Shown one piece after another: positions 10,616 through 61,318 of a DNA stretch of 64,000 nucleotides; within the stretch, counting starts at the first letter, position 1; each line of letters starts with the position of its first letter. This DNA is from Paracoccaceae bacterium (GTDB taxonomy: Bacteria; Pseudomonadota; Alphaproteobacteria; Rhodobacterales; Rhodobacteraceae): the NCBI GenBank assembly GCA_050299335.1, contig JBNKVT010000021.1, forward strand, positions 76,756-140,755, written 5' to 3'. A program made the position numbers and the translations under genes. The notes under the pieces were generated by a model. It did not search any database. It saw nothing but the letters and a program-made list of their open reading frames with translations, and was not told the DNA's origin.

Positions 10616-11220
10616 TATCGATGCCTCTCGTTAAGTTGCCGATCTTCACCCCCGCCGGGGACATTAACCTATTTTAGAGGTTTTCTCAACGGATCTGCGC
10701 CGATTTCGGGCGCGTTTCGCGGCGTCTCCGGTAGCCCTGTTCCGCGCCGAACAGGATTTTCGGCGGGCGATCCCGCGTTGCCTTCGGGAAACCGGGCACC
10801 TCAGAAGACGGCCCGAGACAATCGCCCCACGTCCGGGCCCTTGCGAAAGCGTCCAGGCTGCGGGCGGGAATTTCCAGCCTGTCGGGCAGACCCTGCACGA
10901 AATCCGCGGGGACGTGCCGGTTAGAGCGATGGCGAGGAAATCGGCAACGATTTCCGACTCGGACATCGCTTAAAATCAAATGGTTAGAGTGTCGTTCCTG
11001 ATTCAGAAATCAGGGACGATGCTCCAGCAAATGCGTTTCAAGGATCGGAATGAATTCGATTTGGCGCAAAATGCGATAATCTGTGACGAATGGGACTCAC
11101 ATCGGCAATATCTGGCGTGATTCCGGCAGACCCCCGCCAGATATAGTTGCGTTCCACCTCCTGCTCCTGTATCGGTGCAGCTACAGGTGCATATGGACGC
11201 GGTAATGCATTCTCTGACGG

Positions 11221-11927: not shown

Positions 11928-12071
11928 ATGAAGAAGCTTTTGACGATGGCGGTGCTGGGCTGGGTTTTGGCGCTGGCATCGGGCTGCGTGCCGCTGGCAG
12001 TGGGGGCCGGGGCTGTGGTGGTGACGGATGAGATCATCGAGGATGATCGCGGCGGGGACGGGCTGTTCTGA
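11928..12071 (+). CDS. Mini-lipoprotein (47 aa) with a lipobox LASGC and a Gly-zipper VGAGAVVV
   Basis: MKKLLTMAVLGWVLALASGCVPLAVGAGAVVVTDEIIEDDRGGDGLF. Confidence 0.45.
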   Translation: MKKLLTMAVLGWVLALASGCVPLAVGAGAVVVTDEIIEDDRGGDGLF

Positions 12072-12202
12072 TGTGGAAGATTCTGGCGCTGATCGGGGTG
12101 ATCCTGGTCTCGGGCTGCACACCGGTCGTGGTCGGGGCCGGAGCGGCCGTGGTGGCCGACGAGGTGGCCGAGCGGAAAAACGGCGGCAGAGGGCTGTTCT
12201 GA
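12071..12202 (+). CDS. Paralogous mini-lipoprotein (43 aa), lipobox VSGC
   Basis: MWKILALIGVILVSGCTPVVVGAGAAVVADEVAERKNGGRGLF. Its ATG overlaps the upstream stop (TGATG). It ends in GLF like its neighbour. It is below the ORF-track length cut-off. Confidence 0.45.
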   Translation: MWKILALIGVILVSGCTPVVVGAGAAVVADEVAERKNGGRGLF

Positions 12203-12325
12203 GGATCTTGCCGCGCGTGCAAGATGTCCGAACGCGCGATCCAGCCCGGCAACGAGCTTTCGGTCATGCGAACGTTGCGGGGTTTCGAAATCCGCCGCAT
12301 CCAGCCCCGCCGATGCTGGGCGCCT

Positions 12326-12436
12326 GAGCAAAACCGGATCAGATTGAATCAATCTGATCCCAGGATTTTGCTCAAACATTTGAATCTGGAGCAAAATTCT
12401 TTTTTCAGACTGATTCAGTCTGAAACGATTTTGGTC
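12326..12436. repeat. ~110-nt structured intergenic repeat, copy A
   Basis: Hairpin 1: GAGCAAAA-[GATCAGATTGAaTCAATCTGATC]-TTTTGCTC. Hairpin 2: GAGCAAAAT-[CAGACTGAtTCAGTCTG]-ATTTTGGTC. A near-identical copy lies at 60739-60848. Confidence 0.7.
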
Positions 12437-12582
12437 TACGGCGTATTGCGCCTGACCGGATTCACTTATTCATTCCGATCCGCGAGGCAGCGTTTGCGCA
12501 GCAAATGCGTTCGCGGTTTGGAATGAATTCGATTTGGCGCAAAATGCTATAGTCCGGCAGGGCCGTATGGCGTGGCGGCTGC

Positions 12583-13143
12583 TTATTCCGGCTCGATCCG
12601 ACCGCCTGACGCTTCTATGGCCGGCCCGACGCGCTCGGCCAGCACCCGTTGGGTCACCGGCCCCGCGAACCGCAGCACGACCCGGCCGGTTCCGTCGATG
12701 ACAAAGGTCTCCGGCACGCCGTAAACGCCCCAGTCGATCCCTGTCCGTCCGCCTTCATCGGTGCCGATGGCGGCATAGGGATTGCCGAGTTCGTCGAGGA
12801 AGGCCCGGGCGTTGTCGGGATTGTCCTTGTAGTTCACCCCGATGATCGTCACCCCGCGCCGCGCCAGCTCCGCGAGCGTCGGATGCTCCACCCGGCAGGG
12901 TCCGCACCAGCTGGCCCAGAAATTCACCAGTTTCACACCTGGTGCAGTCAGCGCCTCTCGGTTGGGGGCGGGGATATCCGCGCTCAGGGCGGGCAGGTCC
13001 AGAGCCGGGGCCAGCCTGCCCTCCAGCGCGCTGGGCAGCTCGTCGCGGCCGGCGCGGGAATTGCCGAAGGCGAATGCCAGGAGCAGCACCACGAAGATCA
13101 CCGGCGGCAGGATCAGGAGCCAGTTGAACCGCCGCTCAGCCAT
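12583..13143 (-). CDS. ccmG: Thiol:disulfide interchange protein CcmG/DsbE (cytochrome c maturation)
   Basis: WCGPC active site. N-terminal TM anchor. Confidence 0.85.
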   Translation of the reverse strand: MAERRFNWLLILPPVIFVVLLLAFAFGNSRAGRDELPSALEGRLAPALDLPALSADIPAPNREALTAPGVKLVNFWASWCGPCRVEHPTLAELARRGVTIIGVNYKDNPDNARAFLDELGNPYAAIGTDEGGRTGIDWGVYGVPETFVIDGTGRVVLRFAGPVTQRVLAERVGPAIEASGGRIEPE

Positions 13144-20911: not shown

Positions 20912-20988
20912 GATGGGTGGTTCCGCGCCACCGGCGCGGGTTCACCCATCGCCCTTGAGCGCCCGTAGGGTGCGTGGTTTCACGCACC
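20912..20988. repeat. REP-like hairpin pair downstream of acnA
   Basis: H1: GATGGGTG-gtt-CCGCGCC-acc-GGCGCGG-gtt-CACCCATC. H2: GTAGGGTGCGTG-gttt-CACGCACC. Confidence 0.65.
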
Positions 20989-21102
20989 ATTCGTCATGAA
21001 AATTCACGAGATTCCTTCGCATGACGCTCACCTCACTGCGATGCGCCATTCTCGATGCCGCCGAATATCGAGCCCAGGATACGCATCCTGCCCCTCCCCG
21101 CC

Positions 21103-24448: not shown

Positions 24449-25066
24449 CTACCATAAGCTCTCAGCCGCGCGCCCGGGCCAGTCCTGATCATATTTCCGC
24501 CCGTCAACCTCACCCTTCGACATTGCCCCGAGGATCGCCCCCGGGCTCGGCAGCCCCGACAGATCAGGCCGCACATCCCAGAGCCCTGCCCGCATACAGG
24601 CCCGCGCGCATTGGAAATACACCTCGCCGATCCGCACCATCACCACCGAGCGCGGCGCCTTGCCGTCAACGGCGAACACGTCACAGGTCTCCGCATCAAT
24701 CGCCACCCGCGCTTCACCATTCACCCGGATCACCGTATCCGATCCCGGCACCAGAAACATGCACGAGACCCTCGGATCGCGCACGATATTGCGCAAACTG
24801 TCCATCCGGTTGTTCCCCCGCCGGTCCGGCAGCGCCAGGGTCCGCTCATCAACCACCGTCACCACCTGCCCGCGATCCCCGCGCGGCGAGCAATCCAACC
24901 CTTCCGGCCCGATGGTCGCCAGCGCACAGAACGGCGCCGCCTCGATCCAGGCGCGGTACTGTGCTGTCAGATGATCCGCCACCTTGGCCAGCGAGGTCAC
25001 CCCCGGTTCACCGTAGATGACTTCAAGATCAGCTTCCGTCTCCGCAAACCGCGCCATGCACCCCAT
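24449..25066 (-). CDS. Pyridoxamine 5'-phosphate oxidase-family FMN-binding protein
   Basis: The start was reset to MGCMARF with an AAGGAG RBS. PNPOx-like split-barrel pattern. The upstream part of the ORF-track ORF overlaps edd and was rejected. Confidence 0.5.
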   Translation of the reverse strand: MGCMARFAETEADLEVIYGEPGVTSLAKVADHLTAQYRAWIEAAPFCALATIGPEGLDCSPRGDRGQVVTVVDERTLALPDRRGNNRMDSLRNIVRDPRVSCMFLVPGSDTVIRVNGEARVAIDAETCDVFAVDGKAPRSVVMVRIGEVYFQCARACMRAGLWDVRPDLSGLPSPGAILGAMSKGEVDGRKYDQDWPGRAAESLW

Positions 25067-25151
25067 TCTCCTTCTTGAAAATACCTCCGGGGGGTGTGGG
25101 GGGCGGAGCCCCCCACGGATCGTCCCGCGAAGCGGGGCGAAATTCCTTGCC

Positions 25152-29986: not shown

Positions 29987-30055
29987 GGTCCCCGCTCCTC
30001 CTTCTTCCAAATACTCCCGCCGGAGGCGTCCCGGACCATCGGGCCCGAGGACATG

Positions 30056-33778: not shown

Positions 33779-33882
33779 CGCCCCTTTATCCTCCTTCTTG
33801 AAAATACTCCCGCCGGAGGCTCCCGTCCGCGCGCCCCGACCCGAGCGCTGCCCGCCAGTCACGAAACGGACTCCTCTCTCCC

Positions 33883-47413: not shown

Positions 47414-47483
47414 CATGGTGCGTGAAATCACGCACCCTACGTTATTGTTTCCATTGCGTGTAGGGTGCGTGATTTCACGCACC
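47414..47483. repeat. REP-like hairpin pair (inverted plus direct copies of GTAGGGTGCGTG-N4-CACGCACC) in the phaA-phaB spacer
   Basis: CATGGTGCGTGAAATCACGCACCCTACG is the exact reverse complement of the unit at 20965-20988. A direct copy follows 17 nt later. Confidence 0.65.
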
Positions 47484-47496
47484 TTTCCTCAAGGTC

Positions 47497-59743: not shown

Positions 59744-59888
59744 CAGTGGCCCCTGCCCCGGCATCCCGGCTGCGGCAAATCGGCATCAAACCGTCGGTGA
59801 AAATGCTGCACGGGTCCGCTCCCCTCTTGCGCGGGGCGTCAAGGCACCGTTGACTCGCGCGCACTGCTTGACCGAAAGGGAGACAACC

Positions 59889-60689
59889 ATGACGGCCAAT
59901 CCTGACACACCGACCACACCGCTGGGGGTCGGATCGCTGATCTCCGAGAGCTTCGGCGTCTTCTTCGCCCGCATCGTCACCATGTTCAAGATCATCTTCC
60001 TGCCCATTCTCGTCATGGGCGCCATCTCGGCCATGGTCTCGGGCCCGGCGATGATCACCGGCATCGGGACCATCACCGGCGATGTCGATCCCGAACAGCT
60101 TGCACGCTTCAGCAATCCCGGCGTCTTCGAGCAATATATCCTGCCGCTGATCGGCGTCGTGGTCAGTTTCGTGATCACCGGCGCGGTGATCCTGGCCGCC
60201 TATGACACAAAGCTCGGCCGCCCGGTGAACATCCCGGCCTATTTCAGCCGCACCCTGGCATTCCTCGTGCCGCTGATCGTGCTGTCGATCGTGCTGGTCA
60301 TCATGGGCTATATCGGCCTGTTGCTGCTGATCCTGCCCGGCATCTACATCTTCGCCCGGTTCAGCGTCCTGACGCCGGCCATCGTCGTGGAGGGCGTCGG
60401 CTGGGGCGGGCTCGGTCGCGCACAGGAGCTGACCGCAGGCTACCGCTGGCCCATCGTCGGGGCATCAATCCTGCTGGTCCTTGCCATCATCGTGATATCG
60501 CTGGTCATCGCCGGACTGACCTGGCTTGGCTACACCATCGCCGGGATTGTCGGCTACACTCTGGTCTATGCCATCGGCAACACGATCACCACGGGGATCA
60601 TGGGCTGTTTCACCGCCCTTCTCTTCGCCAGGCTGAAGGAGATCAAGGAAGGCGTCGGCATGGCCGATATCGCCTCGGTCTTCGAATAG
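59889..60689 (+). CDS. Polytopic membrane protein, paralog 3 of 3
   Basis: The start was reset to MTANPDTPTTPLGVGSLISESFGVFFA (AAGGGAG RBS). LTAGYRW. C-terminus IKEGVGMADIASVFE. Confidence 0.6.
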   Translation: MTANPDTPTTPLGVGSLISESFGVFFARIVTMFKIIFLPILVMGAISAMVSGPAMITGIGTITGDVDPEQLARFSNPGVFEQYILPLIGVVVSFVITGAVILAAYDTKLGRPVNIPAYFSRTLAFLVPLIVLSIVLVIMGYIGLLLLILPGIYIFARFSVLTPAIVVEGVGWGGLGRAQELTAGYRWPIVGASILLVLAIIVISLVIAGLTWLGYTIAGIVGYTLVYAIGNTITTGIMGCFTALLFARLKEIKEGVGMADIASVFE

Positions 60690-60738
60690 GGAGCCCGGAC
60701 ACTGGGGCGGGGAGGAGCTTCGCGGCTTCCCTGCCCTA

Positions 60739-60848
60739 GAGCAAAGCCGGATCAGATTGAACCAATCTGATCCCAGTATTTTGCTCAAGCCTATGTCTCT
60801 GGACCAAAATTCCTTTTCAGACTGCGACAGTCTGAAACGATTTTGGTC
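60739..60848. repeat. ~110-nt structured intergenic repeat, copy B
   Basis: Same dual-hairpin architecture as 12326-12436. The second outer stem is perfect here (GACCAAAAT/ATTTTGGTC), a compensatory change. Confidence 0.7.
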
Positions 60849-60865
60849 TAGCCCGATCGGGCGGA

Positions 60866-61318
60866 TTACCCCGGCAGCCGCCCGGTCAGCACATAGGCCA
60901 GCAGCTCGACCACCTGCGCGGGCCGCTCGGCCACCGCCAGAGCCGCGGCGTCCACCTCTTTCAGCGCATGGCTGTGCTCGGCCCCGTGCTGCACGATCAG
61001 CGATTTGCCCAGAGCCGCCGCGTAGCCTGCATCGAAAGCCGCATTCCACTGCCTGTATTGCGCGCCGAAGCGCACCACCACGATATCGGCCTCGGCGATA
61101 CCCTTGCGCGTCCGGATCGCGTTCAGCTTGGCCCCCTTGTGGTCGTGCCAGAACTTGTCCGTCTCCGCCCCGAGGATCGCCACCCCACAATCATCCGACG
61201 CCGCGTGATCGGTCACCGGCCCGGAAAAGTCCACCTCCAGCCCTGCCACGCGGCACCCGGCCTCGATCTCGTCGCGCCAATCGGTGTGGATTTCGCCCGA
61301 CAGATAGACCTTCAGCAT
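60866..61318 (-). CDS. YtoQ-family protein (nucleoside 2-deoxyribosyltransferase-like fold)
   Basis: 150 aa. The N-terminus MLKVYLSGEIHTDWR is typical of YtoQ. Confidence 0.55.
   Translation of the reverse strand: MLKVYLSGEIHTDWRDEIEAGCRVAGLEVDFSGPVTDHAASDDCGVAILGAETDKFWHDHKGAKLNAIRTRKGIAEADIVVVRFGAQYRQWNAAFDAGYAAALGKSLIVQHGAEHSHALKEVDAAALAVAERPAQVVELLAYVLTGRLPG

Follow-up and report, generated by a model that had tools for sequence, protein, structure and literature searches.

The doubly hairpinned repeat that occurs twice in the window (the whole 64,000-nt stretch analyzed here) belongs to a family of small palindromic elements dispersed across the Alphaproteobacteria. On balance, we read the two copies, A and B, as probable chromosomal, non-coding, non-autonomous mobile repeats of the MITE/REPIN type that insert at YTAR sites across this class. 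The family is widespread and its stems covary, from which it follows that the element is real and conserved. Two aspects of the family deserve particular attention, namely its precise junction with stop codons and the correction of its palindromes by templated mutation, the latter of which bears directly on how compensatory changes in such repeats are to be interpreted.

Each copy comprises two sub-hairpins, here called M1 and M2, which are built as the sequence-only reading had described them and which lie within boundaries that proved exact when the sequence was read (Table 1). The identity between the copies, earlier put at ~85%, measures 96/110 (87%). In M1 of both copies, an outer stem, GAGCAAA(A/G).../...TTTTGCTC, surrounds GATCAGATTGA-A(T/C)-CAATCTGATC, while in M2 of both, an outer stem, GA(G/C)CAAAAT/ATTTTGGTC, surrounds CAGACTG-N3-CAGTCTG. 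Chance matches to either half of the element are expected 0.00 times (100 shuffles of the window), and, compared with shuffles, the folds reach z scores of -6.9 to -9.8 as RNA, on both strands, and of -8 to -9 as DNA. The left flank of copy A is degenerate, reading CCT in place of YTA. Gene calls by GC3 and Pfam uphold the earlier placement of both copies in convergent intergenic regions: copy A has two small lipoprotein-like ORFs on one side (+, ending at 12202) and a redoxin gene on the other (12583-13143, -), and copy B is flanked by an ORF (59850-60689, +) and by a ytoQ-like gene (60866-61318, -), which is followed by pheT.

Other features of the window accompany the two copies. A third, divergent element of the superfamily consists of two TA-flanked hairpins with GAGC/GCTC ends, whose inner palindromes are unlike those of A and B; one of its hairpin units, 10987-11024, was detected by the hairpin scan. 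A second repeat lies 3' (on the + strand) of these GAGC-ended elements, directly adjoining the third element and ~60 nt beyond copy A, where it pairs with 12456-12489 to give a further hairpin, so that the arrangement resembles a BIME-like mosaic; this repeat is absent from all 119 fetched loci. The two tandem lipoprotein-like ORFs have similar C-termini (..GGDGLF / ..GGRGLF) and lie where the GC content drops to 47-60% over 2 kb, a region with no other convincing genes. The mechanical ORFs that run through copy A show no coding signature, with a GC3 of ~0.62-0.68 versus 0.81-0.86 in the real genes here. A further repeat, present in three copies, reads on the minus strand as a GC hairpin, a T-run, and AAGGAGGA, and resembles a terminator with a ribosome-binding site after it.

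Table 1. Positions of the repeat elements, their parts, and associated features; coordinates refer to the window unless a locus is named.
Feature	Position	Strand	Basis or detail
Copy A, whole element, GAGC...GGTC, 111 nt	12326..12436	+	Sequence; model R1, 86.8 bits; 87% identity with copy B
Copy A, hairpin unit M1	12326..12373	+	Hairpin scan, -26.1 kcal/mol; folds
Copy A, parts of M1			Outer stem GAGCAAAACC/GGATTTTGCTC with 2-nt bulge in the 3' arm; inner palindrome GGATCAGATTG-AAT-CAATCTGATCC
Copy A, spacer AAACATTTGAATCTG	12374..12388	+	Alignment; spacer shared by the Methylocella-type subfamily, there AAGCTTTTGAATCTG
Copy A, hairpin unit M2, inverted copy of an M1-like unit	12389..12436	+	Folds; alignment
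Copy A, parts of M2			Outer stem GAGCAAAAT/ATTTTGGTC with G.G mismatch; inner palindrome TCAGACTG-ATT-CAGTCTGA
Copy A, right flanking TA	12437..12438		Sequence, flank profile
Copy B, whole element, GAGC...GGTC, 110 nt	60739..60848	+	Sequence; model R1, 85.9 bits
Copy B, hairpin unit M1	60739..60786	+	Hairpin scan; folds
Copy B, hairpin unit M2	60802..60848	+	Folds; outer stem GACCAAAAT/ATTTTGGTC fully paired, the subfamily consensus state
Copy B, left flanking TA	60737..60738		Sequence, flank profile; context C-TA-G
Copy B, right flanking TA	60849..60850		Sequence, flank profile; context C-TA-G
Third, divergent superfamily element	10919..11027	-	Model R1, 21.4 bits, E = 7e-4; DNA fold z = -6.3
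Second repeat, GCAAATGCGTT..GGAATGAATTCGATTTGGCGCAAAATGC(G/T)ATA(A/G)TC	11029-11081; 12498-12554		28-nt exact core
GTAG-tagged REP hairpin GTAGGGTGCGTGATTTCACGCACC	20966-20989; 47417-47440; 47461-47484	+; inverted; +	
Repeat TCCTCCTTCTTGAAAATACTCCCGCCGGAGGC, three copies	25066-25097; 29996-30027; 33789-33820		
Two tandem small ORFs	~11929-12071; 12072-12202	+	Lipoprotein-type signal peptides (..LALASGC.., ..ILVSGC..)
Mechanical ORF through copy A, 173 aa	11873-12394	-	
Mechanical ORF through copy A, 100 aa	12224-12526	+	
Orthologous Bosea element	L050 7689-7811; L105 7345-7464; L052 3791-3910		

The family was sought with the exact 21-nt core pattern ATCAGATTGANNCAATCTGAT in contigs representing one genome per species, and more than 106 loci from several alphaproteobacterial orders were found among the matches listed. 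Nearly all hosts among these listed matches are Alphaproteobacteria, including the genera Bosea, Xanthobacter, Azorhizobium, Ancylobacter, Aquabacter, Methylocella, and Breoghania, as well as Rhodobacterales (Silicimonas, Pikeienuella), a Sphingomonadales MAG, Phenylobacterium (Caulobacterales), Hyphomonas, and Kiloniellales; the closest relative of copies A and B among them is from a Silicimonas MAG (L021). Homologues of YtoQ assign the window to the Rhodobacterales/Paracoccaceae. A metagenome scan with the window-type 3' end added four more copies, from one sample. One shared architecture is seen across ~108 copies. Specifically, the left half runs from Y-TA into GAGC, a variable outer stem, an inner palindrome, the returning outer arm, and GCTC followed by TA, and the right half from TA into GAG(C/A), a stem, a second inner palindrome, the returning arm, and GCTC followed by TA-R. 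The returning outer arm of the first unit carries a 2-5-nt bulge, the units are separated by a 10-16-nt spacer, and the inner hairpins, flanked by CCG/CGG, close 3-nt loops with stems of 9-11 bp; the overall length is 110-114 nt. Further, in 55/64 elements the alignment of M1 is better with M2 in reverse complement than with M2 as read; the element is thus an inverted doublet of one ~48-nt hairpin unit, which explains the alternative fold of copy A, end to end, into one long hairpin. Derived forms include solo units, a form with spacer and M2 (L112), and a single hybrid hairpin (L115, L027) in which the left arm of M1 meets the right arm of M2. A covariance-model search of the loci uncovered extra copies with other inner palindromes (e.g., GATCAGGCTGAATCAACCTGATC, GTTCAGATGGGATCATCTGAAC, and GATTTTGGACTGAATCAATCCAAAATC, along with GATCAGGCTGA.., GTTCAGATGG.., and GATTTTGGACTGA..) that keep the GAGC/GCTC ends and TA flanks, so that the 21-nt core looks invariant in part because it was itself the pattern searched for.

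Signs of mobility come from the dispersal of the copies and from their boundaries. A Methylocella MAG carries eleven copies with a mean identity of 95% (maximum 99%) in unrelated flanks, and the copies of Xanthobacter AM33 have a mean identity of 91%. Conservation ends sharply three bases outside GAGC and GCTC, with a left flank profile of C53/T13, T59, A59, a right flank profile of T61, A61, G53/A17, and background beyond. TA is found at both ends in ~80% of copies, in a Y-TA / TA-R context, and adjacent elements use one common TA (L019, L047, L085). The combinations of bases at -3/+3 match independence exactly (CG 23, CA 8, TG 6, TA 2), so these bases are not paired with one another but resemble the two outer positions of a YTAR target. 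Two traits of MITEs are also present: a non-coding length of <500 bp with mutually complementary GAGC.../...GCTC ends, and many dispersed copies with unrelated flanks. Of 62 elements with a classifiable context, all of them intergenic, 17 lie in convergent, 36 in tandem, and 9 in divergent regions, and those in tandem contexts are oriented with transcription about as often as against it (19 same vs 17 opposite). For gene ends within -40 to +60 nt of an element end, the stop codon is formed by the TA-G junction itself in 27/52, and such stop-codon junctions occur symmetrically, at both ends of the element.

Under the reading that we favor, a transposase encoded outside the element would move it in trans, and it would insert into YTAR sites with duplication of the TA, as do IS630 and the IS427 group of the IS5 family, for example IS711. 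IS630 reportedly targets CTAG with TA duplication. For IS711, the target is YTAR, again with duplication of the TA (PMC2266754, PMC3163539). Insertion into a stop codon would then allow the terminal G of the element to rebuild a TAG stop. A search for an empty, pre-insertion site by way of ytoQ orthologues found none, the relatives having pheT-ytoQ-mscL, a different synteny; a second indel between the Xanthobacter loci L031 and L038, considered as an empty site, is not an element. Given that no empty site was recovered and that TA is self-complementary, duplicated TA is indistinguishable from TA that belongs to the inverted termini, and the duplication is something that we infer. In three Bosea species, the element occupies the same site in flanks that are ~91% identical (~9% diverged), which indicates that single insertions can be old and suggests that recent mobility has been low there.

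The enzyme responsible is a point on which the evidence divides. No transposase or multi-copy ORF was found near the elements in ~0.8 Mb of flanks. When 965 flanking ORFs were clustered, only common families emerged, which by reading of their sequences are presumably ABC ATPases, histidine kinases, LysR, and similar. BLAST of window-, Bosea-, and Sphingomonad-type elements against 72,556 plasmids gave one weak partial match, and the core pattern had 0 matches in 2.9 million viral contigs; such near-absence from plasmids and viruses is unusual for an IS-derived MITE. Chromosomal restriction, persistence, the lack of a multi-copy transposase in the flanks, the doublet build, and the bulge are features that would also be expected of REPIN-like elements with a single-copy HUH transposase. 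Specifically, the doublet might be recognized as single-stranded DNA by a chromosomal, single-copy HUH/Y1 transposase (RAYT-like or IS200/IS605-like) that cleaves next to the YTA motif, without a true target duplication, an explanation that we regard as possible though doubtful. Complementarity over the whole unit and a conserved bulge exceed what the terminal repeats of a DDE transposase need, and recognition of a single-stranded hairpin fits these better. The inverted doublet is the architecture of REPINs and of REP head-to-head dimers (PMC3733652), the hairpins stay paired while one arm keeps a conserved bulge or internal loop, and the alphaproteobacterial CGTC-tagged REP dimers likewise have no known dedicated transposase (PMC3733652). 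Weighing against this explanation, the ends are GAGC/GCTC rather than the GTAG or CGTC tags of the known REP superfamilies (PMC3733652), a separate, classic GTAG REP is present in the same window, and no Y1 gene or RAYT occurs among the recurrent neighboring genes in the flanks. Further, the ends and their stop-codon junctions are symmetric, the independent -3/+3 bases fit a duplicated palindromic target better, and replication strand, assigned by GC skew, shows no clear bias (43 vs 29, binomial p = 0.12, with both window copies against the trend).

Comparison with named repeats places the kind of element on familiar ground. The REP/BIME-type option raised by the sequence-only reading was right in kind, as the elements are multi-copy, dispersed, intergenic, and palindromic, but they do not belong to the GTAG or CGTC REP superfamilies. 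Like the present element, REPINs and GTAG REP dimers are inverted doublets of short hairpins, ~100 nt long, with complementary arms that fold as two hairpins or one long one, and they are multi-copy, intergenic, chromosome-restricted, and vertically persistent. Unlike REPINs, the present element lacks a GTAG/GTGG tag, ends in GAGC/GCTC with TA flanks, and has units of 48 nt rather than 20-40. The GTAG REP hairpins of the window indicate that this genome has a canonical REP family, and probably a RAYT, beside the GAGC-ended elements; the pair near 47.4 kb forms an inverted dimer, its GTAG ends turned toward each other across 20 nt. CGTC-tagged REP dimers (Di Nocera et al. 2013, PMC3733652) share with our family an occurrence in Alphaproteobacteria, a mostly head-to-head dimeric build, conserved spacers, and stems starting with AT. 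However, these REPs are defined by a terminal CGTC (or TGTC/CCTC) tag, an 8-9-bp stem, a 4-5-nt loop, and a CCA tail (PMC3733652), and the present element has no CGTC tag, 8-9-bp stem, or CCA tail, its inner stems being enclosed by an additional, outer stem that ends in GAGC/GCTC.

Resemblances extend to families outside the REPs. The Correia/NEMIS elements of Neisseria and orphan MITEs (ERIC, RUP) are likewise ~100-150 nt and non-coding, with inverted termini, TA at both ends, many chromosomal copies, and no known cognate transposase. They differ from the present element, which has a double-hairpin (doublet) build in place of a core between two terminal repeats, shows no evident promoter or IHF site, and is probably unrelated in sequence to Correia. 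Transcripts of the Correia/NEMIS type fold into hairpins that RNases can cut (PMC10969869). Br-REP1 and Br-REP2 of Bradyrhizobium/Rhodopseudomonas (Hahn et al. 2016, PMC5082802) are, similarly, alphaproteobacterial multi-palindrome mosaics of intergenic regions, including convergent 3'-UTRs, with lineage-specific abundance (PMC5082802); identity with Br-REP1 was rejected, as its consensus CCGGAATCTCGAGATTCCGG has 0 matches in the window (<=3 mismatches) and 0 exact matches in the 119 loci. The Alphaproteobacteria also contain Bru-RS1/Bru-RS2 of Brucella and RIME1/2 of Rhizobium, which published accounts describe as palindromic, intergenic, and 103-110 bp long. Bru-RS elements attract frequent insertions of IS711, with its YTAR target and TA duplication (PMC2266754, PMC3163539). 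Sites of this type arise at both ends of the present element, and a relationship to Bru-RS/RIME is at most a lead. Neither a model R1 match at E <= 1 nor a TA-flanked GAGC hairpin turned up in positions 1-200000 of S. meliloti pSymB. Sequence strings from several subfamilies matched primer coincidences only in a full-text literature search, and no matching sequence was found in the literature on Bru-RS, RIME, Br-REP, REP, and MITEs. Thus, although the kind of element is ordinary, this GAGC-ended family appears to be unnamed, Bru-RS and RIME having been compared by description only.

Across the family, hairpin pairing is clearly maintained. Pairing extends to 96.7% of stem cells in a set of 64 distinct elements and to 82.8% in their shuffles, and compensatory changes occur in 20/32 stem pairs; 0/500 shuffles reach the observed values, and slid controls are 25-44% paired. 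Within subfamilies, double Watson-Crick changes (16 events) are as frequent as single mismatches. Individual cases include L113 and L114, whose M1 core has a compensatory change from T-A to C-G, and the GACC/GGTC ends of the M2 outer stem in the window subfamily, which, relative to the GAGC/GCTC consensus of the superfamily, are a true G-C to C-G swap. The latter bears on the G/C difference between the M2 outer stems of the window copies, from which the sequence-only reading had argued for a compensatory change. The difference is real, with copy A mismatched (G.G) and copy B paired, but its direction is the reverse of what had been implied: five of the six subfamily copies (copy B, L021, L112, L113, and L114) have GACC/GGTC, which makes copy A, with GAGC, the deviant.

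The further claim, that such compensation implies selection on structure, holds up only as far as the covariation, which is very strong family-wide. An orthologous element in Bosea reveals a one-step route to the same outcome. Relative to L105 and L052, which keep the old form, the left arm of L050 has changed from GAGCCGGAT---CC to GAGACGGATTCACC, the exact complement of the right arm, through a C to A substitution and a 3-nt TCA insertion. In its sequence, this rewrite carries the signature of template switching within a quasi-palindrome, and one-step templated perfecting of this kind means that covariation is no proof of selection. Templated restoration of pairing may be a neutral process, or one that enzyme recognition, not RNA function, drives. 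In the Xanthobacter orthologues L031 (434-541) and L038 (3694-3814), which carry different M1 variants, both arms have changed together (GC to CG), and unit M2 is deleted in L038; as judged from these sequences, the pattern suggests conversion between dispersed copies. For the mobile element that we favor, hairpin complementarity may thus be kept by the recognition needs of an enzyme together with templated quasi-palindrome correction during replication, and need not reflect RNA function.

These observations bear on an explanation that we consider improbable, namely that the double hairpin is a host-selected RNA element that, when the convergent genes beside it are transcribed into it, terminates transcription or protects mRNA 3' ends, with its multiplication being incidental. 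In the window subfamily of the Rhodobacterales, the outer stems contain A4/T4 tracts, and each strand, if transcribed, would therefore give a strong hairpin followed by a short U-run; terminator-like hairpin-plus-T4 matches number 2 per window copy, against 0.6 expected, and fall on both strands, which also fold strongly as RNA. Moreover, window-subfamily copies with a resolvable context are convergent in 5/5, versus 17/62 family-wide. The T-runs of this subfamily are only 4 nt long and 2-5 nt from the stem, and most other subfamilies have GC-rich outer stems without a T-run. Elements often begin at a stop codon, a position at which REP hairpins are reported, in work cited within PMC5082802, to affect translation and mRNA decay, and Bradyrhizobium Br-REPs in convergent 3'-UTRs are transcribed (PMC5082802). 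Nonetheless, the family also occupies divergent and tandem regions (9 and 36), in either orientation, and its near-identical dispersed copies and sharp TA boundaries are signatures of transposition. G.U is not in excess over A.C (G.T vs A.C mismatches, 11 vs 6 events, strand bias not significant), and the templated case in Bosea provides a non-selective route to pairing. As a secondary role of the mobile element that we favor, bidirectional termination or 3'-end stabilization by copies of the window subfamily is speculative, if plausible.

Least probable is that the repeat is a free-standing sRNA gene or a double-stranded DNA site for methylation or protein binding (GATC/GANTC; bound by a nucleoid protein or regulator): although the 21-23-bp M1 inner palindrome is identical across distant orders and many loops read GANTC, the core invariance is partly built in by the search pattern, other inner palindromes exist, the L113 and L114 cores carry their compensatory swap, and covariation of the outer stems is unneeded for duplex binding. 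The sequence-only reading had offered both options, and neither is supported. GANTC is missing from both loops of copy B and some superfamily members lack GATC, so neither motif defines the element. As for an sRNA, Rfam at the gathering threshold returned just two tRNAs for the whole window and no matches for eight related loci, an E-value scan of 12250-12600 gave sub-threshold microRNA-like hairpins and nothing else, no promoter-like site was seen at the window copies, and both strands fold alike with no orientation preference; a free-standing sRNA gene, of which its own promoter, a fixed orientation, and strand-specific structure would be expected, finds no support, and neither does a cis-regulatory RNA of fixed strand.

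Building on the reading of copies A and B as mobile repeats, we tentatively put forward a broader hypothesis, to which we give well under even credence. The GAGC-ended, TA-flanked elements may constitute a third, unnamed superfamily beside the GTAG and CGTC REPs, one that inserts precisely into stop codons, is moved by a possibly domesticated chromosomal enzyme, and in some lineages has been co-opted as post-stop hairpins affecting termination, ribosome release, or 3'-end stability.

The element is real, widespread, and tidy but would not surprise a specialist, and its modest points of interest are the stop-codon junction and the templated correction of its palindromes. The family would add a widespread and well-delimited member to the small mobile repeats (REP/REPIN/MITE), for which the Alphaproteobacteria are poorly catalogued. 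In practical terms, the elements seed spurious ORFs and confuse annotation, as with the 173-aa ORF through copy A; they mark insertion hot spots, since each end creates CTAG; and they might be used as strain-typing markers. The stop-codon junction offers a testable system for the effect of a post-stop hairpin on expression. Finally, the orthologous Bosea case is a natural example of a "compensatory" change produced by templated mutation, and it urges caution in arguing for structure from covariation in palindromic repeats.
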